Shown: positions 7,324 to 25,472 of the stretch, piece by piece | Layout of the letters: every line of letters begins with the position of its first letter | Position numbering within the stretch: position 1 is the stretch's first letter | Assembly (NCBI GenBank): GCA_963663165.1 | Contig: OY760175.1 | Location: 5,952,001 to 6,016,000, forward strand | Length of the DNA stretch: 64,000 nucleotides | Direction: 5' to 3' | Source of the DNA: an uncultured Desulfospira sp. | GTDB taxonomy: Bacteria > Desulfobacterota > Desulfobacteria > Desulfobacterales > Desulfobacteraceae | Notes under the pieces: model-generated | The model's database searches: none | The model's input: the letters and a program-made list of their open reading frames with translations, nothing else | What the model was told of the DNA's origin: nothing | Made by a program: the position numbers and the translations under genes

Positions 7324-8724
7324 TTAGTGGCCTAAGCAAAGTGACCGAATTTGTATGAAGATATTGTCAGTCAAGATGTTCCACCTCCCGGAAAGGAGCT
7401 GACTCCTTAAGAACAACATTGATTCGGATGTTTCCGGTTTCCAGAATATACCCGGTGATTTCATTCTGAGATTTATAACCCGACGTATTGCACTTTCAAC
7501 ACAGCCGCTGCCAGTAGGTATTTTCAGGCTGCGGAACTGGCGATACTGCATTCTGTTTCGATTTTTCACGAAGTAACTTTTAAATTTGGATAGTGCTTCT
7601 ATGCGCCTTTTAGGGTACGTAATGTGTTTTACAATTTCTTTTCTAAGGTCTTTGAATCTGCCATCCCAAAGGAGGTTCTTCCAAGATTCTGCTATCCGGT
7701 TTCTTTCTTTTATAGGGATTCTCTTTGGCAATTTGTCCACGATTTCATGTAAATTCTGTTTTGCATGGGTGTAGTCGATTACCTCATAATAGGATTCGAT
7801 TTCAAGCCGTTTGGCCAGCGGGCCTGTTCGCTTCCAATAGCTACGTGCACCGTCACAGCAGAAAACAACACGCTTGGCTTTGGGAATATCTAATTCACGC
7901 AAGTAGATCTCAAGAATATCAAAAGCGGCATCAATACCGCCCATTGTGGCATCATAAACCGGCAAGTGTTTTTTGGATATTGTGCCGTCCGGATCGACAA
8001 TATGTATGACAAACTGAATGGGTTCTTTCCATTCAGTATGATATCCCTGCCGCTTTTGGCCTTTTGATTTACGTCCCCGTTTTGGCCTCCGTTCTCGAAG
8101 GCGACCGCCGTCGATACAAACCAGAACCGTTTTGCCACCAACGCGATCAGTATCTCCAAAAGATACCCGGCCACGCAGGGGCATAGCTTCCTGTGCAAGA
8201 TTCATTGTTATGCGGCGTATGGTTTTGACATTTAAGTTGATTGCATGGTTTTCCAGGGATCTTCGGGCAATTTCAAAAGAGGGGCAGAGCAATGCTGCAT
8301 GGACCACCGACGAAGCGAACAGCGTTGAACACCTGCCGATAAAACCAAGGTAATCAAGCCCAAAATGGCGGCCTGTCCCCTTTTGTCGTTTTTTTGTTTT
8401 AGGGCCTGGCCGTTGTTTGGAAACAACTTTTGAAAAGTAAGGGGATCGGATGCTCAGGGTAGTTCCTGTCAATAATCGAATGCTGCTGGGGCGGTATCCG
8501 TTGAAACGCAGTCCCTTTTTACCGGCACCAATTTTCAGTTCAGATAAAAGATCCGGGTCAGACAGTGCCTTTTCAATGACGGGAACCAGAAATGCTTCCA
8601 CAATAATGAAGAGGCCGTTCCGTAACTGCTCACACAGGATATTAGCATTTTGATGGTTTTGGAAATCAGCTACGGCTTTTGTTAGAAGGGTTCGAATATC
8701 CCTTATAGTGGAAGCAAGTTTCAT
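7324..8724 (-). CDS. DDE transposase, ISKra4/ISLre2-like
   Basis: CIDGGR, WKEP, CCDGARSYW, IDYTHAKQ, TGSGCVESAIR...RMK..G..W motifs; the stop codon lies inside the terminal IR. Confidence 0.88.
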   Translation of the reverse strand: MKLASTIRDIRTLLTKAVADFQNHQNANILCEQLRNGLFIIVEAFLVPVIEKALSDPDLLSELKIGAGKKGLRFNGYRPSSIRLLTGTTLSIRSPYFSKVVSKQRPGPKTKKRQKGTGRHFGLDYLGFIGRCSTLFASSVVHAALLCPSFEIARRSLENHAINLNVKTIRRITMNLAQEAMPLRGRVSFGDTDRVGGKTVLVCIDGGRLRERRPKRGRKSKGQKRQGYHTEWKEPIQFVIHIVDPDGTISKKHLPVYDATMGGIDAAFDILEIYLRELDIPKAKRVVFCCDGARSYWKRTGPLAKRLEIESYYEVIDYTHAKQNLHEIVDKLPKRIPIKERNRIAESWKNLLWDGRFKDLRKEIVKHITYPKRRIEALSKFKSYFVKNRNRMQYRQFRSLKIPTGSGCVESAIRRVINLRMKSPGIFWKPETSESMLFLRSQLLSGRWNILTDNIFIQIRSLCLGH

Positions 8725-8781
8725 GATCAGTCCTCGAATTGCAGGTTGAAAAATTACCTGTCATTTCGATGACTGAAACCC

Positions 8782-9654
8782 TCAAGTTTGTGTGCATAGC
8801 TGCTTTTTATAATTGGAAGTCAACGGGTATACATAGATGTCTTTTATCGGCACCTGAAGTCTGTGGTGCCTGTCTTGACGGCTTCGCCCTTTGCTTTGAC
8901 CAATTTTTTGCCAATTTGCCGCCTGGTAGCAAGTTCCGGCAAAGCGTGATCGATCCACGAAAGTTTCTACCAGACAGATATCGTGACCATATTTAGCTGT
9001 CCAGTCCCGGCTCAGCCGCCTAAGACATGAACCCAGAATATGACTGGCAAGATGGGGAATTCGAATCCATGGCAAAATCAAAAATCGGGTATTGTTGGTC
9101 GTCATATGCAGGTTCCTGCGACGAGCCGACCTATCCCAACCGATGAATCGGTCACGAGGGGCCGTTTTCCATGCTGCTGAGCCAAAAAGCAGGCAGGCAA
9201 CCGGACGAGAATTGCGATCAAAAGCCATATACTTCATATGTTCTCCGACATACCCTTTACACCCAAGGTAATGATATCGATCCATAAGGCAATGGAATAA
9301 ATCATCAATATCTCCACGGCCCGATACCGGTATCAATTGTATCGGGCGGATCTTACGCAAAGTGGTTTCTATCGGCTTACAATCATGGGGGACATCGGGA
9401 ATACGCCGCTGACGGTTACCGCTATGACGGGCAACGGGAAGTGTGACCATCCCTTTTTGCTCAAGTTTTCTCAGCATGCTTCGACAGGCCATGTCCTTGA
9501 GCAGACCTTTTTCCGTGCGCCAATCCCAGCGAGCACACAATTCTTTGGATAAACGAGTGCGGTGCCAGGCGGGATTGTCGTTAATCAAATGGCGTATCGT
9601 TTGTATATCAACTTCTGAAAATTCACGTCCTTGAATGGTTAAAGTCCTGCTCAT
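8782..9654 (-). CDS. DUF4338 (DruA-like) domain protein
   Basis: R..LS..LC..W.W, YHYLG, RDRFIGW, NNTRFLILPW...HLASHIL, ETFVD..RF.GTCYQAANW...G..KG motifs. Confidence 0.85.
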   Translation of the reverse strand: MSRTLTIQGREFSEVDIQTIRHLINDNPAWHRTRLSKELCARWDWRTEKGLLKDMACRSMLRKLEQKGMVTLPVARHSGNRQRRIPDVPHDCKPIETTLRKIRPIQLIPVSGRGDIDDLFHCLMDRYHYLGCKGYVGEHMKYMAFDRNSRPVACLLFGSAAWKTAPRDRFIGWDRSARRRNLHMTTNNTRFLILPWIRIPHLASHILGSCLRRLSRDWTAKYGHDICLVETFVDRSRFAGTCYQAANWQKIGQSKGRSRQDRHHRLQVPIKDIYVYPLTSNYKKQLCTQT

Positions 9655-9904
9655 GCAAATCTATATAACCTTTCATGAGCCAGGAGTCCAGCTTTTTTTG
9701 GGAGGGCAGAGTATTCAATGCAGCATGAAAAACGGAAAAATTGGATACATGTCAGTTCATGCCACTAAATGGGATTGCACCCAGGCCTGACTAAACAAAT
9801 ATGAAGCACTGATGAACAGTTACGGACCCTTGTTTTGCTTAGTTTTCAGCATTAGCTGAATAGTTACAATTAATGTTTCGTTATGGGCGAATTTGGGATG
9901 TTGA

Positions 9905-9961
9905 GAGTCAAACCTTGATGATTGTATCTTAACCGTTATTGCAAACATCAAGGTTTGACTC
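9905..9961. repeat. Long hairpin (16-bp perfect stem), REP-like or terminator, downstream of the phosphoesterase gene
   Basis: gagtcaaaccttgatg ... catcaaggtttgactc; the loop resembles that of the 15088-15154 hairpin. Confidence 0.7.
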
Positions 9962-9995
9962 ATTTTTCACAAGGGTGTCTATCCGTTATTCCAAA

Positions 9996-11732
9996 TTAAG
10001 GACATGCACACCCACCGCAAGTGCATTGGATTATCAGTTTCCTGGCGTCTCTTACGGTAATTTTTCCATCTGCGTCCATATCGCATTCAGGACAGGCATC
10101 GGCCGATGCCCTCAGATATTGCCTGAGGATTTGAATATCACTTTTATCCACGGTCCCGTCATCATTCAGATCCCCCTTTAGGGGTGCCATATCGACAACC
10201 GCGAATTTTCCATCATGATCCAGGACAGCCCAGACTGTGTTAGCGGCTGTATCAACGCCATATGAACCCAGGCCGTAACCGGATTCCCAGGGCCCCTGGA
10301 CCAGGCCGGGAGTGCTTTGGGATGCATTGGCGGCCACCGCCCGTTCCCAGGTATTGCCGTTAAATCCTGCCAGCCGGAGCCCGGATTCGTCATCCATCAG
10401 GGTGTCGTCATAGGAGACTTGAAGCACAAAGGTGTCGGTGGGCGTATCCGGGCTGTCTGACATCCCGTTAAGGACAAGGATATCCCCGGCAGGGGTACGG
10501 CCGCTTTCGGCGTCCTCTATAGCGCCGGCGGTCTGCCATCCAAAAGAAACCAGATTGCCCATCTGGCTGGTAACCGGCGTGATTCCTTCATCCGGATCCG
10601 TGGTGACTTCTTCATAGGTTGTATTTGTTCCCTCCAGAATGACCGCTTGGGTTCCGGCAAACCCGTCACCCTCCTGGATTTCACTTCCAAGCTGTGCATA
10701 GGAGCCATTGGCCTGTACCGCATACTGGCTGCCGTTGGTCGAATAAACTGTCCGGTCGACAATGGTCCATTCCGGGGTCCAGACCTCGTTGGGATCCTGG
10801 GGATCGGGATGGGCAGAGGAATAGTGTTCGATGGTGACAAAAGATCCGTCAACGGTTACGATGGTGTAACCAACCTGGTCGTTGATCTGCTTGAAACCAA
10901 CTTCATCGCCGGTGTTGATTTCATATTCAAACCGGTAATATTTTTCAGCGTTGGAGCCGGTGATCAAATGCTGGAGCAAAAAATTTTCGTCTTTAATCGC
11001 CGCAGACCGGCTGTACTGGTGGTCATGGCCGGAAAAATATGCTTCGGCACCGTTGGCTGCCATGCCTTCTATCAGTATCATCCGGTAGGCCGTGGCGTCC
11101 AGAACCCCTTCTCTTGCACGGCCAAAAAGGGGTTCATGGGCAAAGACAAACATGTGATCATTGTCCCCAATTTCAATGGAGAGTATCCAGTTCATCAGGG
11201 CACTGGGGGCGGCACCGTATAAATCTATGGCTACAAATCGGACGTTGTTATAATCAAAGATATAGGAAGCCCCGGGGCCGCGCTGCACGATGGGGTTGTA
11301 TTCACTGCTGCCAGGATCAAGATAGGGGAATTTGCTGTCCCAGATGTCGGTCAGCGCGATGTCTACGTCACCATAAAGGGGATCAGCAATTTGAGTCTCT
11401 TCCTCTGATCCGTCATCATGATTTCCCCTGATGGGGAATACGTCAATTCCGGCATCGTATAGCGGGGCGGCTGTCGTAAGCCACTGGTCGAATTCAGTTG
11501 AACCGCCCTTGTCGGTTAAATCCCCGACATGCATCATCATGTCCACCTGATGAACATTGACCATTCTGTCCACCACAGGCCCCATCAACCGGACCGAAAC
11601 CCCGTTCAGGCTCACGCCTGCGGCCCCGCCTGACTGGGTATCCGCCATAATGCCAAACCGCCATTGGGCACCGGCCTGGGCCGGAAACCACAATCCAAAG
11701 ATACACATAAAAACAATGAACAATTTTTTCAT
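9996..11732 (-). CDS. Secreted calcineurin-like metallophosphoesterase with C-terminal dockerin
   Basis: Signal peptide; ADTQ, GDL, GNHD, AHEP, GHDH motifs; C-terminal GDLNDDGTVDKSD...DMDADGKITVRDAR (duplicated Ca-binding loop-helix). Confidence 0.85.
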   Translation of the reverse strand: MKKLFIVFMCIFGLWFPAQAGAQWRFGIMADTQSGGAAGVSLNGVSVRLMGPVVDRMVNVHQVDMMMHVGDLTDKGGSTEFDQWLTTAAPLYDAGIDVFPIRGNHDDGSEEETQIADPLYGDVDIALTDIWDSKFPYLDPGSSEYNPIVQRGPGASYIFDYNNVRFVAIDLYGAAPSALMNWILSIEIGDNDHMFVFAHEPLFGRAREGVLDATAYRMILIEGMAANGAEAYFSGHDHQYSRSAAIKDENFLLQHLITGSNAEKYYRFEYEINTGDEVGFKQINDQVGYTIVTVDGSFVTIEHYSSAHPDPQDPNEVWTPEWTIVDRTVYSTNGSQYAVQANGSYAQLGSEIQEGDGFAGTQAVILEGTNTTYEEVTTDPDEGITPVTSQMGNLVSFGWQTAGAIEDAESGRTPAGDILVLNGMSDSPDTPTDTFVLQVSYDDTLMDDESGLRLAGFNGNTWERAVAANASQSTPGLVQGPWESGYGLGSYGVDTAANTVWAVLDHDGKFAVVDMAPLKGDLNDDGTVDKSDIQILRQYLRASADACPECDMDADGKITVRDARKLIIQCTCGGCACP

Positions 11733-11789
11733 TTGTCCCTCCTCAATTTAATATTAATATTTTCGTTTAAAATTGAATAATCGATATGC

Positions 11790-11817
11790 GTTAGTCCCGA
11801 ATTAGAAAATCATTAAA
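11790..11817 (-). promoter_or_regulatory. 11-bp-periodic direct-repeat box (PhoB/OmpR-type candidate)
   Basis: Minus strand tttaat-N5-tctaat-N5-actaac; a 20-bp stretch is 19/20 identical to 19849-19868. Confidence 0.6.
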
Positions 11818-11968
11818 AGAATGATATAACGGACAATGGAGGATGCTTTGAGGGATCACATATTTTCGGTGCGCCTGTCTGTAAGAACAGATGGCTCAAC
11901 ACGGGGGAAACCATCAGGTTCTCCAAAGGAAATTTTATTTTTAAAACAACTCATATTCCTTACATCAA

Positions 11969-12007
11969 TCTAGTATTTTTCTATCTGGATTCAAATTAAT
12001 TTCTAAC
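11969..12007 (+). promoter_or_regulatory. 11-bp-periodic direct-repeat box (PhoB/OmpR-type candidate)
   Basis: tctagt-N5-tctatc-N5-tcaaat-N5-tctaac upstream of 12291. Confidence 0.5.
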
Positions 12008-12290
12008 CGCCGACATATACATTTTTACCTGATCATCTTTAATTTGAAGACAGCAGCCATTAAGATACCGATATTATTGGTTCGAAACCGGGAACGGATT
12101 AATATCCACTTCCTTAACCTGCCATGAAAGCCATAATGTATTCTGCATTAAGCTTTTGTTATAAAACAAAATATTTTAATAAAGGGGGTGGTATTCCACA
12201 TTTATATTAACCAAATCCTTCCCAAAGTCCGGGAAGTTGTTTTTAAACCGTTCAAGTTTATATTTTTATTTATTCTAAGGAGAGTTTATC

Positions 12291-12812
12291 ATGAAAAAAT
12301 TTAAGATTGTCCATGTATTACTGTTTGTATTCCTTATGGGTTTGATTTCCTCAACTTCCGCATCTGCAGCAAGTATTTCTTACTCGTTTACCGATCTGGG
12401 AGACCAGCAATGGCAGATTGACTATCAGCTGACGGATTTTAATTCAGATGTCTATGACGGGGTTACCATTTATTTTGATTACAGCCTCTATGGGTCCATT
12501 GGTCTGACCAGCTATGACGAAGAGGCCTGGGATATTTTGGTTGTTCAGTCGGAGGAGGATATCCTGGGTGTCAGCGACGATGGATACGTTGATGTGCAAC
12601 CACTGAACCATGGCGGTATACTGACCGGAACCTTTTCCGTTACGGTAACCCTGCTCTCAGATGAACAACCCGGTTCCCAGGGATTTGAATTGTATAACGA
12701 AAACAACTGGGATGAGGTTGCCACCGGCACAACCTCTCCGGTGCCTGTCCCCGGTGCCCTGAGCCTTTTGATGGCCGGTCTTTGCGTCCTGGCCATGGGC
12801 AAAAGAAACTAA
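12291..12812 (+). CDS. PEP-CTERM/VPLPA-CTERM surface protein of unknown function
   Basis: Signal peptide, acidic beta-rich body, C-terminal VPVPGALSLLMAGLCVLAMGKRN (motif + TM helix + basic tail). Confidence 0.85.
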   Translation: MKKFKIVHVLLFVFLMGLISSTSASAASISYSFTDLGDQQWQIDYQLTDFNSDVYDGVTIYFDYSLYGSIGLTSYDEEAWDILVVQSEEDILGVSDDGYVDVQPLNHGGILTGTFSVTVTLLSDEQPGSQGFELYNENNWDEVATGTTSPVPVPGALSLLMAGLCVLAMGKRN

Positions 12813-12836
12813 TTCACAATTTTAAGGAGAAACATC

Positions 12837-14996
12837 ATGAAAAAAAATATTGTTTATCTTCTGATTGTCCTTTTGAGCTTAACGTTTGGGGCCTCCATTG
12901 CCGCTGCGGATTTTTCCATTGAAAATTATACCCTGCAGAGCAAAAAACGGGTAAGCCGGACCGAATTTCTTTATACCTTTAAAGCAGATATTGTCAATTC
13001 CGGAGAAAACGCTGGCGGCGTAACCGCCACCCTTTCCAGCAGCGTTTCGAGCACCGTTGTTGTAGACGGCGAACTGGCCTTTGGCGATATTCAGGGCGGC
13101 CAGACCGCACAAAGCGAAGATACCTTCAGCATTCGCCAGAACCGCAGGGTTGCCTTTGATGCGTCCGCCCTTGCCTGGACATTTAATCAGACCAGCGACC
13201 ATATCCCGGTTGTGGTTAAACTCATCCACACCAACGACCATCATTCTCATCTGGACAGCTCCACCTATGAACTGACCCTTAACGGCACCGCCACCCAGGT
13301 GGAAATGGGCGGGTTTGCAAGCCTTGCCACCATTATCCAGGAAGAACGCAATGACAACAGCATCGTGGTCAACAACGGTGAACTTAACGGTACCCTGTAT
13401 TTTTCTCTTTTCAAGGGAGTTCCCGACTTCGAGGTGTTTAATCTGCTTGGCCTTGACGGATATGCTTTGGGCAACCACGAATTTGATGAAGGGGATGAGG
13501 GCCTGGCCGATTTGATCAAGATTGCCAACTTCCCCATTCTTTCCGCCAACATCGCCCCCCAGGAAGAAAGCCCCCTTTATGAAGTCAAAGACCGGATTCT
13601 GCCCTATGTCATCAAGGAAATTGACGGGGAACAGGTCGGTGTGATCGGCCTGCTCAAGGTCGAAAAGACCAAAAACTCCTCTCTTGTTTCCGATTATGTC
13701 ACCTTTACCGATGAAATTGAAGCGGCCAACAATGCGGTTGCCGAACTGCAGGCACAGGGAATCAACAAGATCATCATGGTTTCCCATGTGGGATATTACA
13801 ATGACATCCTTCTTGCCAAAAACATCCCCGGCCTTGACGTGATCGTGGGCGGTGACACCCACTCGCTTTTGGGGGATCAGACCGACCTTGAGGCCATCGG
13901 CCTGAGCCAGGATTATGATGGCCAGACCGGCCCCTTTGACGGGTATACCCATGACGGCATTGAAGAAGAAGAAACCCTGGGCGAATACCCCACCACCGTC
14001 ACCGGTGCTGACGGGAACCCTGTTCACGTGGTCCAGGCCTGGTGCTATGCCTATGGCGTTGGAATCCTGAACATTGAGTTTGATGCCGATGGTGCTGCCA
14101 CTGCTGCCCAGGGCAACATCCACATCCCTGTGGCAGGCCCCTTTCTCCAGAAAGATGAAGAATCCAACAGCATGGTGGAAGTTTCCGATGAGGTCAATAC
14201 CCAGTTGCTGGCCGCCATTGCTGCGTCCCCCATCCTGACCGAGGGTGAGGTGGACTCACAAGTGGATGCCCTTTTGGCCCCCTACCGCGTGGATATGGAA
14301 GAGTCCATGAATACGGTGATCGGTTACATTTCCGTAACCATGCCTTATACCAGAATCCCCACGGCATTTGCCCAGGGTGAAACCCCCACGGGCAGTTATG
14401 CTGCCCAGGTGGTCAGCAATGCTTTTAAAAGCACCAACCCCGGAATTGACTTTGCCATTCAGAATGCCGGCGGTGTGAGAACCCAGCTTCTTCAAGGCGA
14501 ATTTACGGTTGCCGAAGCCCTGGAGTGCCTGCCCTTTTCCAACACCGTTGTCACCATCGAAATGACCGGTGCTGAAATCCGCCAGGTCCTCAATGAAGCG
14601 GCCTGGTATTCTCTGACCTCCGGTTCCACCGGTTCATTTCCCTATTCATCCGGGCTGCGGTACGATGTAAATATAAGCAATGCAGATGCCGATAAGACCG
14701 CAGAAGAGTGCGGGGTCATCTACAACATTGAAATGCTGGATGAAGAAACCGGCACCTGGGTTGCGCTGGATGAAACCCAAAGCTATACCGTTGCCACCAA
14801 TTCATTTACAGCCCTGGGCAAGGACAATTACCTGACCTTTAAAACGGTTCGGGATGCTGACCCCACAAAGTTTGAAGATACTTATATCAACTACTACCTG
14901 CCCCTTAAAGAGTACATTGAGGAGCTGCCCAACCAGACACTGCCCGCACTTGATAAAGACTCATACTGCCTGAAGTCCGTCATCGATGAAGACTAA
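12837..14996 (+). CDS. Secreted 5'-nucleotidase (UshA/NadN-like) with an extra N-terminal domain of about 95 aa
   Basis: HTNDHHSH, LGNHEFD, SHVG, GGDTH, QNAGGVR, LPFSN, 5'-nucleotidase C-terminal domain; signal peptide. Confidence 0.9.
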   Translation: MKKNIVYLLIVLLSLTFGASIAAADFSIENYTLQSKKRVSRTEFLYTFKADIVNSGENAGGVTATLSSSVSSTVVVDGELAFGDIQGGQTAQSEDTFSIRQNRRVAFDASALAWTFNQTSDHIPVVVKLIHTNDHHSHLDSSTYELTLNGTATQVEMGGFASLATIIQEERNDNSIVVNNGELNGTLYFSLFKGVPDFEVFNLLGLDGYALGNHEFDEGDEGLADLIKIANFPILSANIAPQEESPLYEVKDRILPYVIKEIDGEQVGVIGLLKVEKTKNSSLVSDYVTFTDEIEAANNAVAELQAQGINKIIMVSHVGYYNDILLAKNIPGLDVIVGGDTHSLLGDQTDLEAIGLSQDYDGQTGPFDGYTHDGIEEEETLGEYPTTVTGADGNPVHVVQAWCYAYGVGILNIEFDADGAATAAQGNIHIPVAGPFLQKDEESNSMVEVSDEVNTQLLAAIAASPILTEGEVDSQVDALLAPYRVDMEESMNTVIGYISVTMPYTRIPTAFAQGETPTGSYAAQVVSNAFKSTNPGIDFAIQNAGGVRTQLLQGEFTVAEALECLPFSNTVVTIEMTGAEIRQVLNEAAWYSLTSGSTGSFPYSSGLRYDVNISNADADKTAEECGVIYNIEMLDEETGTWVALDETQSYTVATNSFTALGKDNYLTFKTVRDADPTKFEDTYINYYLPLKEYIEELPNQTLPALDKDSYCLKSVIDED

Positions 14997-15031
14997 GGGT
15001 ACTTGAAAGAAAAAGTCTTTAATTTTTAATT

Positions 15032-15080
15032 AGCAAAGGAGCAGGGGGGACATTGTCCTTTCTGCTCCTTTGCTTTTTTT
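15032..15080 (+). terminator. Intrinsic terminator of the nucleotidase gene
   Basis: agcaaaggagcag...ctgctcctttgct followed by a T-run. Confidence 0.8.
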
Positions 15081-15087
15081 CCTTAAC

Positions 15088-15154
15088 AAGTGGTGTCAAC
15101 CCTTTATTATTGTATCATAATCGGTATTCCAATAATCACGGGTTGACACCACTT
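15088..15154. repeat. Long hairpin (15-bp perfect stem), REP-like
   Basis: aagtggtgtcaaccc ... gggttgacaccactt, with inner attattg/caataat pairing. Confidence 0.7.
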
Positions 15155-15179
15155 TCCCCTATCTTTATGCCACTCGGCT

Positions 15180-15214
15180 TAAAAAAAATATCCCGGGCCA
15201 GACGGCCCGGGATA
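15180..15214 (-). terminator. Intrinsic terminator of the cohesin gene
   Basis: tatcccgggcc-agac-ggcccgggata preceded by an A-run on + (a U-run on -). Confidence 0.75.
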
Positions 15215-15252
15215 AGGAATCCATTAAATTTTCGGAATCGGGAATTTAAAGC

Positions 15253-15774
15253 TTAGGCGTCTTTTCTGGCCAGTCCGGCCAGGCCCAGCATACCCAAACC
15301 CAGAAGAACAATAGCCGAAGGAACAGGAACCGCTTCTACACTCAGGTCTTGATGATCAATGCTGAAGGCAGCGGTCCCGTTATCAATGGCGGTAAAAGAC
15401 AAGGTTGCCAGGGTAAAGGAATCTGGCTGGGATGCCAGCAGCTCGGAAGCGGACAGGTAGGATATCACACAAAGATTGACAAGGCCGTCCACGTATTCTC
15501 CTTCACTATAGTCATCGGCTTCAAAATCATCAATGCTTCCAAGCCAGTCAGAAAGCGTGTAATCGCCAAATGCAAGAACGCCGGAATCAAAGGCAACATC
15601 AATGTCAAAACCCCCCAGGATGGTGGTGCCGTCAAGCCCTGAGATAACCAGGTCCAGCGTAATTACATCGTCTGTAGAAACGGTTGCAGAATCAATGGAA
15701 AGAGACAAAGTGGCGGCCTGGGCGGAAACCGCTAAAACCAGGAAAGCAATGGTGGTTAACATAAATTTTTTCAT
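15253..15774 (-). CDS. Cohesin-like domain protein with PEP-CTERM/VPLPA-CTERM anchor
   Basis: Signal peptide; cohesin-like strands ITLDLVISG...LGGFDIDVAFDSGVLAF...FTLATLSFTAI..GTA; tail VPVPSAIVLLGLGMLGLAGLARKDA. Confidence 0.8.
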   Translation of the reverse strand: MKKFMLTTIAFLVLAVSAQAATLSLSIDSATVSTDDVITLDLVISGLDGTTILGGFDIDVAFDSGVLAFGDYTLSDWLGSIDDFEADDYSEGEYVDGLVNLCVISYLSASELLASQPDSFTLATLSFTAIDNGTAAFSIDHQDLSVEAVPVPSAIVLLGLGMLGLAGLARKDA

Positions 15775-15905
15775 GGGACTTCTCCTTTTTTAATTTTTTT
15801 TCATGGGTCCTCTCTTCATCACTTGAAGAGTGAATTTTACAGTTTATAATATCCGGGCTTTATGATCCCCGTAATAGCCGAATGTTATAATTTGGTTTGA
15901 TTTGT

Positions 15906-15937
15906 ATTCAAGGTCCCGGATGGCCGGGACCTTGAAT
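15906..15937 (-). terminator. Hairpin between the large phosphoesterase and cohesin genes
   Basis: attcaaggtcccgg-atgg-ccgggaccttgaat, perfect 14-bp stem. Confidence 0.6.
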
Positions 15938-15973
15938 TTTCAATGGGTTATCTTAACCGTTCCGGTGCGGCTG

Positions 15974-18900
15974 TTAATCCAGCTGAAACTGGTCCATGAT
16001 ATAGACATCAGTATCCGGATCATCCGTATCATAGGCATAGGTGGTCACCGTACCGTCTTCCGTGTTCAAAATGGTGAAGGCCGTTACCGTGTTGCTTGAA
16101 AGATAGGGCAGGTAACCCAGCGCATCTTCCTGGGGTGCAACATTGGGCGTAATCGGTTCAAGGCCGTAAGGGTCATCATACGCATCATAATCATCGGCAT
16201 TCCAAGGAGAACCCGGTGTCCCGGAACGGGAAGACCGGCCGGTAACGTAAGAACCATAGGAATTTCCAACATTGGAGGTTTCCAGGTAGTTCACGCCGGT
16301 AGCGCCCTTGAAGCGGTTCCAGACATGGTCATGGCCATTAAATACCAGGTCCACCCCGGCCTCTTCGAGCAGGGGCTCGATATCCCGGATCAGGTGGCTG
16401 CCGCTTTTGGGGTACTCATACCGGATGCTGGTGATATTGCCGTCATCATCGGTTTCCACTGTCCGCACAGGGTCTGTAAATGCGGGAACAATATTGTCTC
16501 CCAGGCTGTGCAGGGGATGATGAAGCATCACAATCGTATATTTGGCCGCCTTGAATTCATCACTGGCCAGTTCATTTTTAAGCCATTCATACTGATCGGA
16601 ACCTTCTTTGATGGGCTCAAAAATGTGGCGGCCCCAGCCTTGTTCCATCTGATCATCATAGTTGGAAGATGACTCGACATAGGTGCTGGTACCGGTGGCA
16701 ACCGTGCTTTTCCCCCGCCAGATACGAGTGACATACAATGAAATCAACCGTACATCCCCAAAGGTAACCGCGTAATATTTTTCATTGCCTTTGTCGTTTT
16801 CAGGCAGGGTGAAGATCTCCTGGTAGGTATCGGTATTAAAGGTATTGTCTTTTATCCACGCTTCCTTAACGGCTTCACTGCCGGAGGGGTTCACTGTGTC
16901 CGCCACGGTTTCATAAGCTGCTTGCGCCACTGCCACAGGTTTGGGGTCGTTGAACTGGGTGCTTAAGCTATTGCCGTTTTTGACCCGGCCCATGACTTCA
17001 TGGTTTCCGATTACAGGATAAATCGGGGCATTCTGAATGATCTTGCCGCCTTTATAGGTGGTGGTGAATCCGTTGGATTCCAGGGTCCGGGCCGCGGTTC
17101 CCTGAAGACCCGGGAAAAATGCGCCGCCCACAGTGTTGTCAAACCACTCTGACGCCCGGTCAGGGACGTTGACCAGGTCACCGGCAAAAAATACCGCATC
17201 CACGGTACCAAACATCTCTTCTACTTTCTGCATGTTGGCTGGGGTCATGGGTTTGGACTGATGATCAGAGGTCAGAAGGATCAGGTTGGATGTGCCGGTT
17301 GCCGGTTTGGGGGTCATGGTGTACCCGTCACTGACAATCATGGCACCGCAGTCATTAAAACTAATGACCGCATAGGGAACACGCACGCCTTGTACAAGCC
17401 CTGCGGCGACAGCTTCATGCCGCCAGATTTGCCGGTCCGTCACATCGGTATAGGTCTTATCCGGCACGCTGGAGCTTGCATCCTCCCGGGTCCGGCTCAG
17501 CGCCATGGTCTGGGCACTGGCAATCTGAATATCGGCATGGTCCGCAGCAAACGCCTGAATATCAGACCAGTCCAGATCCTCTTGAACCAAAAGCGCCTCT
17601 AAGCCGTTTCCGTAAATCAGGGCATGATCGTCACCCTCATATTCCGTAAACCAGACAACATTAACGGAATTTTCAGAAGGGAGCTGCAAAAAGGGCTGTG
17701 TCAGCAGTTCAGCATTTTCACAGCACTTTTTCAGAGTACAGTTTGTAACCACAATTCTGGCATCCCGGGTATTAATTTTGCCATCCCCATTCAGGTCATA
17801 AAGGGGATAATCTTCTGCAGACTGGCGCAGGTACTGGCGAATGAGGGCCACATCATCACAATCCGTGTCCCCGTCGTCATCCAGATCCGTTACACTGCGG
17901 GTCAGGACGGTTACATCATCATAGGTTCTTCTCTCATACATGGGCAGGCCATTTTCATCCCGCCGTACATCCCCGTTTTCGTCCATAAGGGGAAACACAT
18001 AGACCGGGGTGAGTTGGGCCTGCCATTCGCCATTTTCCAGGTGAACGTTGACTTCCAGGTGACCGTAATGTTTTCCACCGTCAACCAGCTGGCTGCCGGA
18101 CCAGGTTTCAGGGGCGTTCAGATGGGCCAGAAACACCTGGTGATCATTGTTGCTGGGCAGGTCATATAATCCATCTTCGCCCATGTAAGGTCCGCGCAGG
18201 CCGTCGCCGCCAATGCCCACATCGAAAAAGTGGATGCCCTCCACCAGGGAATGTTCATACATCTCGTCGTGGCCATTAAACACGGCATCCACGCCATAGG
18301 TTTTAAACAAAGCGGTCAGTGTCCGCATGGGCACGCCGGACTGGGTATCCTCTCCGCCGCTCTGGCCGGCACTGCCGGCTTTAAATCCGTGGGGGCCTAC
18401 AGAGTAGGGGGAGTGGTGGAACTGGACAAAGATAAAGCGGCTGGTCTCTTTGGCGTCTGCCAGCTGGGCCTCAAGCCAGGTGTACTGGTCGGAACCGGGG
18501 TTGAAGTCCGGGGCCTCGCCCTCGCCCCAGGCTTCGTTATCCTCTGAAGACTCACCTTGGCCCAGCAGGTACCAGTTGGTGTCCTGTCCGGTTTTGTTGG
18601 GGCTGCCGTTGCTGGAATCAATGGTAATATAGGTGATGGGGCCGTAATCTACACGGTAGTAACGTCCCTGGAGTTCTGCCTTGCCGGAGCTGTTGTCCGG
18701 GGTTGAAAAATAGGTGCGGTACCGGGCCATGGCCTCTTTGGCCAGGGGCGTGGTGTAGGAACCGCCGCCACCGTCGCCGCCGGCATGGTTCTCATGATTT
18801 CCCACGGCAGGCAGGATGGGCACATGTCCTGCAATGTCATTGTAAGAACCGGCATTATGGCGCCAGAATTCGTCCCAGTCCCGCTGCTCGTTGCCGGCTT

Positions 18901-19473
18901 CCACAATGTCACCGGCAATGGCAATGAAATCAGGGTTTCTGTCTTCCATGGTCTGGATATTGATCTTATACCCGTCGGTCTGGTCCAGCCAGTACTGGCG
19001 GTCGTAATCTCCGTAAGGCTCGGAGCAGCGCCGGGTTTTACCGGTGGATTCGGGTTCGGTTTCCGAATCGGCATATACTATGAACCGGACATCTCCGTCT
19101 GCCAACGGTGCGGTTTTCATGGTGCTGCTGTAGGTTGAGTCCCCCTGGGTCACCGTATAGGTGTAGGTGGTTCCGGCGCTCAGCCCTTCAACAACAACCC
19201 GGTGCAGGTACGGGGCACCCGGATCAGTACCGCCATAATATTTGTAATCTCAGTGGAATAATAGGCCAGATCCGAAGCCAGTACCGGGGCGCTGGAAAAG
19301 GTTCCCACCCCCTGAACGGTGATTGACCCGGCCTGGCTGGATTCAGACAGCCAGGTTACGGTCATGGCATCTGTCTTGGGATTCTGAAGATAGGGGGTGA
19401 CCCGGAAATCTTCAGCCCAGCAGACAGAGGCGGTGATTAAGGCGACAATAAGAACAACAAAAAGCTTTCTCAT
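15974..19473 (-). CDS. Large secreted double purple-acid-phosphatase-like metallophosphoesterase with central dockerin; frameshifted at about 19242 (pseudogene or sequencing error)
   Basis: ORF 19180-19473 supplies the signal peptide and PYLQNP. A one-base shift joins it to YYGGTDPGAPYLHRVVVEGL and ORF 15974-19153. Two catalytic motif sets (ADSE/GDI/GNHE/HH/GHDE and SDHQ/GDL/GNHE/HHP/GHDH) flank DLDDDGDTDCDD...DLNGDGKINTRDAR. Confidence 0.85.
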
Positions 19474-19495
19474 AATATTTTCTCTCTCTTTTTTT

Positions 19496-19586
19496 GTGAA
19501 AGTCTCACTAACATCTTGAGAAGACGTTCATTTTTTGTTGTGGACGGTTCTTGGTTGGATAATTCAAGCTGTCCGTGACGGTTTAT
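19496..19586. repeat. 90-bp structured dispersed repeat, copy B
   Basis: gtgaaagtctcactaacatcttgagaagacgttc...gtggacggttcttggttggataattcaagctgtccgtgacgg. Confidence 0.9.
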
Positions 19587-19839
19587 AAAAATGGAATCAT
19601 CCGCTGTTGTTTGCCCTGGAACGGCCAGATCCATTCCGGGCTTGATGGCACAGCGGCAGGCCATAACACATGTAAAATTTACAAATGGGGTTTTAAGCGG
19701 GGTAAAAAGAAACAACAAACTTAAATTTTTTAGCCTACCACCTCCTTTCACTAATGATCAGCAGGATAGGAACTCCTCCTTATTTTTCTTAAAAGCGAGC
19801 CGTACGAAGATCGACCTTTATTTTTTTTACAGGACAAAC

Positions 19840-22135: not shown

Positions 22136-23155
22136 TCATAAACTGTCAAGCCAGGCGAGGATTTCAGCACTATTTCCCCAGTCGATTAACTCATCAATTT
22201 TTTTGTCATGAGTTATTTTCGATTGCATGTATTCCATGAGCGTATTTTGGACTTCCCGTTTTTTTGACAGATCCAGCTGCAGATAGGTCATTGTTGATTC
22301 AATACTTTGATGACCAAGACGATTTTTGATATCCGATACCGGAGCACCTGAACTGACCATGTTGACCGCGCACGAATGCCTGAAGCAGTGAGCCGGGCTC
22401 AGTCCTTTCAGCCGTTTTTCCGGCAAGGCCAAGGTCAAATACTTCCTGCAAATTTTATTAATTCCATGTCTGGTCATTTCCCGCTTCCGTTGATTGATAA
22501 ACAGCCTATGGGCAAATAAAGGGATGGGATCTACCCTGTGATTGCTGATATAGTCCGAGATCAAGGAGGCGGTTCTGGAGCATAGATTAATCAACCGGTA
22601 TCGGTTTCCCTTTCCCAGGACCGCAATGGTTTCGTTTTCGGGGTCAAAATAATCAAATTCCAATGTGGCAATTTCACTGGCCCGGGCACCGGAGTCATAA
22701 AGCAGATGGAGAATGGTAAAATCCCTCATGCCTTCTTTCTTTTTCAGATCAACGGCACTGAAGACTTTCATGATTTCTTCAGGATATAAAAATCCCATCA
22801 CCTTTTTTTGAGCTCTTTTCTGAGGGATGTTCAGGAGCCTATCGGCAATTCGTTTTTTATCCGGATGCATGAAGCGGATCATCTTGGCCAAAGACTTAAT
22901 CACGGCCAGGCGTTGGTTTCGAGTCTGCACGCTATTTTTTCGGTTTTTTTCCAGATGCTGGAGAAAGGCAAGCACTGCATCCACCGTTAAGTGTTCGATT
23001 TTCAATGACTTGATTTTTATTGAGTGATGATTCGCCAGAAAATGCAGAAATAACGACAGGCTCTGCTGGTAAGCTTGAACACTTTGTTTGCTCGTCCCTT
23101 TTATCGAGGGCAAGTATTCATAAAAATACTGGTGCAGGCAACTTGTCAATCTCAT
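22136..23155 (-). CDS. Tyrosine recombinase (RitC-like)
   Basis: TRNQRLAVIKS, SGARASE, GKG, HCFRHS, LGHQSIESTMTY. Confidence 0.92.
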   Translation of the reverse strand: MRLTSCLHQYFYEYLPSIKGTSKQSVQAYQQSLSLFLHFLANHHSIKIKSLKIEHLTVDAVLAFLQHLEKNRKNSVQTRNQRLAVIKSLAKMIRFMHPDKKRIADRLLNIPQKRAQKKVMGFLYPEEIMKVFSAVDLKKKEGMRDFTILHLLYDSGARASEIATLEFDYFDPENETIAVLGKGNRYRLINLCSRTASLISDYISNHRVDPIPLFAHRLFINQRKREMTRHGINKICRKYLTLALPEKRLKGLSPAHCFRHSCAVNMVSSGAPVSDIKNRLGHQSIESTMTYLQLDLSKKREVQNTLMEYMQSKITHDKKIDELIDWGNSAEILAWLDSL

Positions 23156-24129
23156 GCACCCTCGCTTTTTGATTTCGAAAAATCAAACAGTTGCCAACGG
23201 TGCTCAGCATCCAGTACCTTCAAATAATAGGTTGTGTATTTGTATTTGCTGTGCCCCATATAAGCCGCCAGTACAGGCAGGGCATTTTGGCAGGATTTTC
23301 CTTGCTGTTTTATCCTTTTCAGCGTGTTCACAGCAAACGAATGCCGCAGGGAATGATGTGAAGGCTGGCTGAAGTTTGTAGTACCGATTATTTTCCGGGA
23401 GTGATCAAAATTAATATCTGTGAGAGCCTGTTTAAATCTGCGATTTATAAACATACGTACCAGTTTTTTCCCTTTCACCTTTACCAGCAAAAAAGGGCTG
23501 TCATCCTCATCAGGGAATAACCGGCGAACTTTTAGCAGGTTGTTGATTTCATAGGCTACGGCTTTGGGTATAGGGATCAATCGATCTTTTCTAAATTTTG
23601 TCTTTTCAATATAGATTGTTCTTTCTTCGGGCCTGTAATGGGTTTTCAATAAATTAAGTGTCTCCGAGGTTCTAAGTCCGCACCGGGCCATCAACAAAAA
23701 GGCTATATAAGCACTGAAATCTGACACATAGAATCTCTGGCTTGTCCGCATCGACTTGATTACAGCTTTGAGAAAACGGTCTGTTTCTTCCGGAGAAAAT
23801 ATAAAAGGAATAACGTGATTTTCCTGTAGCTCAGTGATTTCCTGCAACGGATTTTCCAGGATCACATCTTTGCGTATAAGATAATTGAAAAAGATCTTGA
23901 GCATTCTAAAAATCGTATTTATGGACCGGGGTTCAAGATCAAGTTCTGCTCTGAACCGGATAAAAAACAGCGGATCAAAGGATGTCCAAGTCACTTGTTT
24001 TTCAGACACATATCGATCAAGTACCCTAAGACCGTACATCATTGAGGTGTTTGAGTACCCCAGTTGAAAACGATATGTGATAAAATCCTCCATTTGTTCA
24101 GCCAAGAAACTTTTAAAACGTTTCATCAA
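23152..24129 (-). CDS. Tyrosine recombinase (RitB-like)
   Basis: CGLRTSE, TKFRKDRLIP, HSLRHSFAV, LPVLAAYMGH...TTYYL. Confidence 0.92.
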   Translation of the reverse strand: MMKRFKSFLAEQMEDFITYRFQLGYSNTSMMYGLRVLDRYVSEKQVTWTSFDPLFFIRFRAELDLEPRSINTIFRMLKIFFNYLIRKDVILENPLQEITELQENHVIPFIFSPEETDRFLKAVIKSMRTSQRFYVSDFSAYIAFLLMARCGLRTSETLNLLKTHYRPEERTIYIEKTKFRKDRLIPIPKAVAYEINNLLKVRRLFPDEDDSPFLLVKVKGKKLVRMFINRRFKQALTDINFDHSRKIIGTTNFSQPSHHSLRHSFAVNTLKRIKQQGKSCQNALPVLAAYMGHSKYKYTTYYLKVLDAEHRWQLFDFSKSKSEGA

Positions 24130-25000
24130 GGATAACCTCCCGCATCAGGCCGATATGAATGCTCAGATACTTTTTTGTCGAATCGAGGCTTTTATGTCCC
24201 ATCATTTCTTTGATTTCATAGATGGACATACCGGACTCCAACATATTCTGGGCAAATGAATGCCGCAGCCAGTATGTGCTTGATCCAAGATTGTTTTTCG
24301 TCATGCATTCTTTTATATCTCGGGGGATATCGCTCCTGTTGGCCGGTTTATAAGGTGGTGTCAACTGTAAAAATAGAACTCGGGATTGAGTTTCAGGTCT
24401 CCCGCCCACAATATAGGCAGTGATCGCTTTGATTATGTTATCGGGAAGGGGAAGATGAGCAGGATTGCAATTTTTTCTTGAACGGATAAAAATCTCTTTC
24501 TGTCTAAATGAGATGTCATCCAGAGTTAGCAACCTGATTTCTTTCGGCCTTAACCCCAGATAACATGCCAGATGCAGGGTGGCATTGGTGCGAAGGTCTT
24601 TTGCTGTTGACAGGTCCAGACTGTCAAACAACTTTTGAATTTCATGAGTGCGCAAAAATTTGGGCGGCTTTGGTGGTCCGAACTCCGGAGGGCTTACCAC
24701 TAAAGCGCCAAGGTCCTTTTTAAGATCTCCGTGTTGATAAAGGTACTTTAAAAATCTTCGTACATGTGACCGGTGCGTCCTGCATGTCCCGGGAGCACGC
24801 CCCTTGTTGCAGACTGCTAAAAATTGATCGACCTGGTCAATGGATATGTTGCCCAAAGAGGTGTTTTCCCCCTGAAGATAGGCCGCAAAATTTGTTAATG
24901 TCCTTTTTGTATAGGACACCGCATCCCCGGAAGCTTGATCTCGACAGTAGTCCAGGTATTTCTCCACTGCTTTGGTGACCTTATTGTCAACTTCCATCAT
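24113..25000 (-). CDS. Tyrosine recombinase (RitA-like)
   Basis: LGLRPKE, YWLRHSFA, MGHKSLDSTKKY; start placed at ATG 25000 behind GGAGG. Confidence 0.88.
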   Translation of the reverse strand: MMEVDNKVTKAVEKYLDYCRDQASGDAVSYTKRTLTNFAAYLQGENTSLGNISIDQVDQFLAVCNKGRAPGTCRTHRSHVRRFLKYLYQHGDLKKDLGALVVSPPEFGPPKPPKFLRTHEIQKLFDSLDLSTAKDLRTNATLHLACYLGLRPKEIRLLTLDDISFRQKEIFIRSRKNCNPAHLPLPDNIIKAITAYIVGGRPETQSRVLFLQLTPPYKPANRSDIPRDIKECMTKNNLGSSTYWLRHSFAQNMLESGMSIYEIKEMMGHKSLDSTKKYLSIHIGLMREVILDETF

Positions 25001-25472
25001 GGCTGCCTCCAAAAGATTGCAGGACAAGGCTGCGGATGGTTGCCGGATCGTGCAGTTCCATGTCTTTTTGGCTTTGAAGGGGGGCTGCTGAGGGCAGAGC
25101 CACTCTTTCCGGAAGGGACAATACTTGGAAAAGGTTGCCGTCAAATGCGACCAGGTTCTTGTCAATCAAGGCATTCCTGGCAAGGATGTAGTCATCAACA
25201 CAAATCCTGAGCAGGGTGCAGATTTTATCATAGCCGTAATAGGACAGCCCATGACGATCCGCCACGATAATCAAAAACAGGTACAGCAGGAGCTGATGAT
25301 GATCCAGGCTTGCCCAGAATCCGTCCCGCAGGAACCGGTGTTCGATAAAAGCAAAGCTTCCTGCAATTTTTCTGATGCGGCAGGGATCTATGGGATTTTT
25401 TGCAATGGACGCACGAAAACGGCGTTGGGGCTTTTGATTCCGATTTTTGGCTTTATTTTGTCCGGTCTCCAT
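24987..25472 (-). CDS. Mobile-element-associated putative helix-turn-helix protein
   Basis: RIRKIAGSFAFIEHRF...LLYLFLIIVADRHGLSYY...FQVLSL; RBS present; overlaps the downstream recombinase. Confidence 0.7.
   Translation of the reverse strand: METGQNKAKNRNQKPQRRFRASIAKNPIDPCRIRKIAGSFAFIEHRFLRDGFWASLDHHQLLLYLFLIIVADRHGLSYYGYDKICTLLRICVDDYILARNALIDKNLVAFDGNLFQVLSLPERVALPSAAPLQSQKDMELHDPATIRSLVLQSFGGSHDGS

Follow-up and report, generated by a model that had tools for sequence, protein, structure and literature searches.

We analysed a window of 64,000 nucleotides, by which we mean the whole stretch of DNA, from the genome of an uncultured Desulfospira sp. (GenBank assembly GCA_963663165.1, contig OY760175.1; the source genome, G000). 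Five adjacent genes at 9996-19473 of this window include the candidate parts of a cohesin-dockerin tether. The genes lie on mixed strands (-,+,+,-,-), and their products are all acidic (pI 4.05-4.41) with hydrophobic N-termini that were taken, by eye, as putative signal peptides (Table 1). An earlier note on this DNA had described five adjacent secreted, acidic proteins, namely two calcineurin-like phosphoesterases with a C-terminal and a central dockerin, a 5'-nucleotidase, a cohesin-like domain with a VPVP-transmembrane-basic (VPVP-TM-basic) tail and a second VPVP-tailed protein, and had recognised no glycoside hydrolase at the locus. This inventory was confirmed, with secretion putative: the nucleotidase is NadN/UshA-like and has no dockerin, the second tailed protein is acidic and of PEP-CTERM type, and no glycoside hydrolase catalytic family was found even among the dockerin proteins scanned in the source genome, where a 66-amino-acid (aa) fragment and one short neighbour were uninformative.

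Table 1. Features of the locus at 9996-19473 of the window.
Feature	Positions	Strand	Basis
Large tandem calcineurin-like (purple-acid-phosphatase-like) phosphoesterase, predicted secreted, with central class-A dockerin	15974..19473	-	Profile matches, motifs, G001 ortholog
Class-A dockerin of the large phosphoesterase	17750..17890	-	Dockerin_1 over cut-off
Single-cohesin candidate socket with VPVP-TM-basic (VPLPA/PEP-CTERM) tail	15253..15774	-	Fold model, profiles
PEP-CTERM/VPLPA-type sorting tail of the cohesin	15262..15333	-	PF07589, 23 bits; TIGR03370, 18 bits, below cut-off
Metallophosphoesterase, predicted secreted, with C-terminal class-A dockerin	9996..11732	-	Metallophos and Dockerin_1
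Class-A dockerin of the 9996-11732 protein, followed by a Cys-rich tail	10032..10178	-	Dockerin_1 over cut-off
Acidic protein with PEP-CTERM-type tail (family unnamed, not cohesin); candidate second socket	12291..12812	+	Co-occurrence, gene order
NadN/UshA-like 5'-nucleotidase without dockerin	12837..14996	+	24 bp downstream of 12291-12812
Unnamed N-terminal nucleotidase module of about 95 aa; candidate second plug	12909..13196	+	Near-neutral, conserved Arg/Lys patches, varied cargo fusions

The protein encoded at 9996-11732 matched Metallophos and, at its C-terminus, Dockerin_1 (36.6 bits), and in the large phosphoesterase at 15974-19473 two Metallophos domains enclose a central Dockerin_1 match (25.6 bits; cut-off 22.9 in both cases). 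Motifs of the GD/GNH/GHxH type were present in both catalytic domains of the large protein. The dockerins show the duplicated Ca2+-loop/helix repeat over the PF00404 cut-off, with invariant Asp residues in both loops. The dockerin of the 9996-11732 protein also matched a dockerin in the PDB, and the sole PDB match of the large phosphoesterase ortholog in the relative G001 was a clostridial dockerin (E 1.7e-4). Judged by their sequences, both phosphoesterases carry true dockerins. Compared with G001, the ratio of nonsynonymous to synonymous substitutions (dN/dS) was 0.06 for the large phosphoesterase and 0.21 for the dockerin.

The window copy of 15974-19473 is frameshifted near 19243. Contigs from the runs X1 and X2, which represent one sample that is possibly the source of the assembly, showed a single difference from the window over 9841-19526, an additional base behind 19243. 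Run X3, from a relative, also carried the extra base near this position, and the G001 ortholog is an unbroken open reading frame (ORF) of 1166 aa. Therefore, the break is an assembly error and 15974-19473 is a single gene; pseudogenisation was ruled out by the extra base in the X1, X2 and X3 data. Matches to Shiga-B (E 0.016-0.025) on a 97-aa N-terminal fragment were weak and were treated as chance.

The protein at 15253-15774 scored slightly below the Pfam Cohesin cut-off (PF00963; E 2e-4, 22 bits versus 24.1), and a paralog at 5634927 of the source genome passed it with 29.9 bits. The AlphaFold2 model, based on a 146-row alignment, had a pLDDT of 92.6 (an alignment-free fold with a pLDDT of 38.9 was discarded). 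The top Foldseek match of the model was a cohesin (E 7.4e-7), and in the VIA structure comparison the top 18 rows were all cohesins (best Z 12.9, root-mean-square deviation 2.5, 122 residues aligned). A profile of 29 family sequences matched the ScaB cohesin of A. cellulolyticus (E 1.8e-6). As modelled, 15253-15774 has the cohesin fold, a jelly-roll beta-sandwich, and its D57 presumably corresponds to the Asp that is central in type I cohesins. The family comprised 1665 clusters at E 1e-30 when the tail was part of the profile, and a regular expression found a PEP-like tail in 137 of 154 short family matches. Every cohesin match in the source genome was a single-domain protein of at most 232 aa, and no multi-cohesin protein was found there; multi-cohesin matches such as P0031 were large proteins of a different set, lacked a PEP tail and were left out. 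Three class-A cohesin paralogs of the genus (L034:10175-10720, L035:10866-11402 and L051:7986-8516) seem to start at strand 2, so that eight strands remain in each of them, apparently minus strand 1, and in the window copy, minus strand 9.

The tail of the cohesin scored 19.4 bits against PF07589 in one scan and 23 bits in another, that is, below and above the cut-off of 20.7. Its sequence, together with the C-terminal helix in the model, shows the features of a VPLPA/PEP-CTERM target. The earlier note had suggested searching the genome for exosortases and for further dockerin proteins, and both were found. The source genome gave three PF09721 exosortase matches and 64 PEP-CTERM Pfam matches; XrtD scored 601 bits (cut-off 400) and TIGR02602 was over its cut-off with 197 bits, and an EpsH-family exosortase lies in an XrtA-type exopolysaccharide locus with PrsT. 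An exosortase was present in all five cassette genomes checked. There were 27 dockerin matches in 23 ORFs of the source genome.

We sorted the dockerins by eye into sequence classes. All five class-A dockerin proteins of the source genome carry Metallophos, purple-acid-phosphatase-N or choice-of-anchor-I domains, and no Metallophos match was obtained among the scanned proteins with dockerins of other classes. At all four intact class-A cargo loci of G001, the cargo was likewise a phosphoesterase or a choice-of-anchor-I protein. Choice-of-anchor I is linked to alkaline phosphatase. The available part of PMC10434189 deals with choice-of-anchor J. Dockerin genes with LRR, fn3 and choice-of-anchor-I domains were split into two ORFs in the source genome (L035:7246-10742) and in one G001 copy (L050:3373-6963).

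Three Pfam cohesin matches were obtained in the source genome, which has four class-A cohesins in all, three besides the window copy, and four of the five class-A dockerin genes lie within about 5 kb of one. Among the 76 PEP proteins compared, six resembled cohesins at 99% or more. Five of these six were at most 3.6 kb from a dockerin of the matching class; two of the six are class-B cohesins that were part of their own profile. Class-B dockerins lie directly upstream of class-B cohesins at two loci of the source genome, both of which contributed to the profile, and the same order was seen independently in G228. The class-B profile had no match among PDB sequences and was tied to class A by hhalign alone (96%). 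Dockerins of this second class, immediately followed by their own family of PEP-cohesins, were seen at L038:9558-11235, L039:5081-6864, L135:3-2082, L104 and L060, and a third class-B cohesin (L134:7991-8719) had no neighbouring dockerin. At L040:4525-6760, L041:5174-6645 and L042, where the cargo consists of subtilases, dockerin genes were directly followed by PEP-CTERM genes that were non-cohesin by both profiles and may represent further socket classes.

Conservation separated the two parts of the locus. Neither G001 nor run X3 has the block of 5.25 kb (9928-15181) that includes the 9996-11732 gene, and the closest relative lacks three of the five genes. Because of this absence, the five genes do not form a conserved unit; in this comparison the locus is a composite whose conserved core is the large phosphoesterase and the cohesin. 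Among 30 relatives, G001 and G004 had the cohesin, the same two had a strong dockerin, and G027 gave one weak dockerin match. Cohesin and dockerin were co-located at five of the six cohesin sites (two L050 copies counted separately). We then surveyed 250 genomes of the phylum, with at most 24 candidates per genome at the first look: the cohesin was present in eight and the class-A dockerin in seven, all of them within the eight and covering four of five genera. In 349 other Gammaproteobacteria, the class of Cellvibrio fontiphilus (G279), the cohesin occurred in eight and a dockerin of at least 50 bits in six, one further genome being unscored. All six strong-dockerin genomes have an adjacent cohesin, five by the survey and G440 by a local hidden Markov model (61.7 bits), and no cohesin match was obtained in the six genomes of this survey with weaker dockerins. 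The hypergeometric probabilities of the overlaps were below 1e-6, naive values that ignore kinship. When 54 loci were fetched by dockerin alone, 14 were of class A and six of these had a cohesin in the flank, including those of Cellvibrio fontiphilus and Desulfobacula, and at the 40 loci with dockerins of other classes no class-A cohesin scored above 30 bits. Outside the genus, the class-A cargo comprised nucleases, PhoD, RHS, PKD/Ig, VWA, transglutaminase and lipase-like proteins. G227 had at least 23 proteins with class-A dockerins, many of them 1500-4700 aa long, and only two cohesins (L121), which fits binding in trans. As far as these profile searches indicate, the cohesin family and the dockerin class travel together across phyla in a class-matched manner.

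A model of the complex between cohesin residues 21-148 and the dockerin of the 9996-11732 protein, a check that the earlier note had suggested, scored 0.42 versus 0.00 for the best control, with at least 93% of contacts shared between runs and a partner pLDDT of at least 66. Of 157 solved pairs, 116 reached the mark applied, as did 2 of 215 mismatched pairs; 18 of these solved pairs and both mismatches scored 0.60 or less. The score thus lends weak support to binding, and because similar cohesin-dockerin complexes have been solved, the pass may show likeness only. The net charge was -17 to -27 for the cohesins and 0 to +6 for dockerin helix 3.

Taken together, these results make it probable that the locus encodes part of a putative class-matched, exosortase-linked cohesin-dockerin tether, with phosphoesterases as its specialised cargo in this genus, comparable to OlpA and ScaE rather than to a cellulosome. 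The cohesin and the tagged enzymes would both be exported by the Sec pathway, and an exosortase, probably XrtD, would cleave the tail and leave the cohesin attached to the envelope or to the exopolysaccharide layer. Each cohesin would capture one Ca2+-loaded dockerin, probably via the basic, conserved second helix of the dockerin. Phosphoesterases held near the cell in this way would prevent the loss of released phosphate and nucleosides. Cross-binding in trans may occur between the genome's four class-A cohesins and its five class-A enzymes. Since the anchor has a single cohesin, arrayed 1:1 tethers would result instead of a multi-enzyme machine built on a scaffoldin.

Several observations weigh against this tether, and some of them concern the window cohesin itself. 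At the C-terminus it lacks about 15-20 residues (T124 to P150 spans 26, versus at least 41 in 142 of the 146 alignment rows), and structural alignments stop at about residue 129-131 of 140-144. The nine-strand domain is therefore incomplete: the last strand is absent, as in just four of the 146 members. A Glu conserved in the family (83% E at position 103) is also absent, and the dN/dS of the cohesin domain against G001 (0.42) is relaxed relative to that of htpG and thyX (0.05-0.09); the window cohesin may therefore be partly degenerate. If so, the class-A system could be real while this copy does not bind, and the enzymes would be held by paralogs elsewhere, for which the three other class-A cohesins are available, or released free; the complex score of only 0.42 would fit such a loss. 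However, the shortened form was kept with its partner gene in G001 (86% identity), and the dN/dS values of the cohesin domain and the dockerin both indicate purifying selection. Moreover, the fold model is confident, the canonical dockerin-binding sheet consists of strands 8-3-6-5 with strand 9 outside it, and the paralogs are apparently trimmed too. We regard a non-binding window cohesin as unlikely. The pairing of cohesin Glu103 with dockerin Arg26 also gave no clear sign of co-variation: the loss in the genus counts as a single event, and elsewhere Glu occurred with Leu or Ile at four loci and a non-Glu residue with Arg at three.

The remaining points against the tether concern its distribution and its anchor. 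A dockerin is found within 4 kb of 13 of the 70 non-cohesin PEP genes of the source genome as well, so clustering occurs in secreted-protein islands in any case. Kin are not independent, since four of the seven phylum matches belong to one genus, and for eight of the 14 class-A loci the flank that was fetched, mostly on short or cut contigs, contained no cohesin. Three genomes (G122, G421 and G449) gave a cohesin but no class-A dockerin; the G449 cohesin precedes a nuclease on which no dockerin was detected, and G421 had no Dockerin_1 match, although Pfam missed the true dockerin of Cellvibrio fontiphilus as well. Finally, what happens to PEP-CTERM proteins once they are cleaved is put forward as a proposal in the part of PMC1569441 concerned with it. 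The clustering, the lone cohesins and several other dockerin-like matches of the source genome without a nearby cohesin would also be expected if the two modules were merely co-located in shared islands, the cohesin-fold proteins binding matrix or carbohydrate and the dockerins acting as Ca2+-binding EF-hand tails. Such co-location without binding appears quite improbable in view of the class-specific pairing (A with A and B with B), the near-complete overlap at the genome level in two phyla with unrelated cargo, and the lack of class-A cohesins at the 40 loci with dockerins of other classes.

The earlier note had gone further and read the five genes as one phosphatosome, in which a mini-scaffoldin captures secreted phosphatases for organophosphate and nucleotide scavenging. 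The capture of phosphatases by a displayed cohesin accords with the cohesin fold, the true dockerins, the exosortases and the class-matched co-occurrence; the multi-enzyme complex does not accord with the single cohesin and the unconserved cluster. Likewise, the comparison of synteny that the note had suggested showed that the cohesin-dockerin cassette recurs in Desulfobacterota, whereas the five-gene cluster was incomplete in G001 and run X3. A true phosphate-regulated, synergistic phosphatosome is favoured by the exclusively phosphoesterase or choice-of-anchor-I cargo of the source genome (5/5) and of G001 (all four intact loci), and by the recurrence of PhoD and nuclease cargo in other genomes. 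Against it stand the lack of any multi-cohesin protein in the source genome, the nucleotidase without a dockerin, the absence of 9928-15181 in G001 and X3, and the diverse cargo outside the genus. Within the reach of a loose pattern derived from one pstS promoter, which missed phoA, there were no convincing Pho boxes: it matched four of nine class-A-related upstream regions versus 244 of 1616 in the background, and the best PhoB-like protein of the genome was below its cut-off. A single sigma-54-like site was seen, upstream of the orphan cohesin only, and sigma-70 promoter counts were at chance level. We consider a phosphatosome in this strict sense very unlikely.

The closest parallels to the proposed tether are OlpA and OlpC of C. 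thermocellum and ScaE of R. flavefaciens, which also combine one cohesin with a C-terminal envelope anchor and hold one dockerin-tagged protein each; their cohesins were among the fold matches of the window cohesin (Z 11.4, 11.1 and 9.0, respectively). OlpA and OlpC are anchored via S-layer homology domains and ScaE via sortase, in Gram-positive cellulosome producers. Unlike these, the present locus has a diderm host, a VPLPA/PEP-CTERM anchor, a trimmed cohesin and a Cys-rich dockerin tail, and cargo of its type consists of phosphoesterases, nucleases and adhesin-like proteins instead of glycoside hydrolases. The two marks of a cellulosome, a multi-cohesin scaffoldin and dockerin-bearing glycoside hydrolases, were not found in the source genome, the latter among the dockerin proteins scanned. 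Non-cellulosomal cohesins (NagJ and NanJ of C. perfringens and a cohesin of A. fulgidus) were among the fold matches and resemble the locus in serving a use other than cellulose. A class of nonSLH-anchoring scaffoldins is defined in the accessible portion of PMC11557425. Modules outside cellulose degradation, some of them in diderms, are represented by the hypothetical planctosome (PMC6461901) and the dockerin- and cohesin-like ORFs of Saccharophagus (PMC2386152); in contrast to our locus, the sections available of these two papers describe no PEP-CTERM anchor, and the planctosome model there relies on anchoring by a lamin tail and on multi-domain adaptors that take up peptidases.

The PEP-CTERM/exosortase system, as outlined in the available parts of PMC1569441, PMC3237569 and, for PepA of floc formers, PMC9850573, shares with the locus the tripartite tail, the exosortases and the many targets, whereas these parts assign it no receptor role for separately secreted tagged proteins. 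The words cohesin and dockerin are both absent from PMC1569441. We found no literature description of a PEP-CTERM-anchored cohesin-dockerin or nucleotidase system, although PEP-CTERM surveys or supplements could still mention such proteins; the only literature match combining exosortase and dockerin was, in its accessible text, on methanotrophic archaea. The neighbouring genes for exosortase-sorted sockets and matching plugs suggest a possible, undescribed way for diderms to hold enzymes at the surface. If this is true, part of the PEP-CTERM/exosortase repertoire, little explained since its description in 2006, would gain a concrete function, and cohesin-dockerin surface display would extend to diderms with an exosortase anchor. 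For sulfate reducers in sediments, it suggests how secreted phosphoesterases stay near the cell.

The remaining two genes of the cluster may form a second pair. The 12291-12812 protein was rejected as a cohesin (hhalign probability 0.1%) and had no PDB or family match. The N-module of the adjacent nucleotidase recurs in other proteins, fused to purple acid phosphatase, alkaline-phosphatase-superfamily proteins and a PKD protein; atlas look-ups gave leads only under a score of 0.9, one of them CARDB-like, and no match was found in plasmids or viral contigs. Neither module had a Pfam, NCBIfam or PDB assignment. Among 101 genomes of the family, the socket family and the N-module were both present in the same three (the source genome, G705, twice, and G709), with the socket gene always directly upstream of the module gene. 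In four further pre-chosen genomes, both occurred only in Cellvibrio fontiphilus, adjacent and before an unrelated frame of 1499 aa. Socket and module were thus adjacent in all four genomes holding either one (105 searched), with differing cargo. The socket core has a net charge of -15 to -23. The module, attached to strongly acidic cargo, is near neutral in seven of eight proteins and has a charge of -10 in the other. The tag on purple-acid-phosphatase-like enzymes is a dockerin in the source genome and G001 but the N-module in G709, as would be expected if the tags were interchangeable. The chances seem about even, for this small sample of gene neighbourhoods, that the pair follows the same tether logic with non-cohesin modules. 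More tentatively, and somewhat short of an even chance, part of the PEP-CTERM repertoire may serve as mutually orthogonal sockets, with two unrelated kinds at this locus, of which the second would be an unrecognised docking module of Desulfobacterota and Gammaproteobacteria. Class A, class B and the non-cohesin pair would then be natural orthogonal tag pairs with a possible use in enzyme display. Cellvibrio fontiphilus has both cassette types (G279 C2:67587-68298 and 628254-629047; L059 and L144) and is a candidate test organism.

A YibE/F membrane gene adjoins purple-acid-phosphatase cassettes of both tag types (L034:8833-9993 by Pfam; L051:6740-7894 and L137:30-974 by resemblance). In the window, an ISKra4-like transposase (106 bits, below cut-off) and a DruA-domain ORF adjoin the locus at 7324-9654, where run depth suggests a multi-copy element. 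Short dispersed repeats that resemble miniature inverted-repeat transposable elements or repetitive extragenic palindromes flank the region at 9783-9870 and 19497-19591, for which blastn gave 74 and 247 pieces genome-wide, respectively. Three successive ORFs at 22136-25165 resemble, by eye, the tyrosine recombinases of a RIT-like element.

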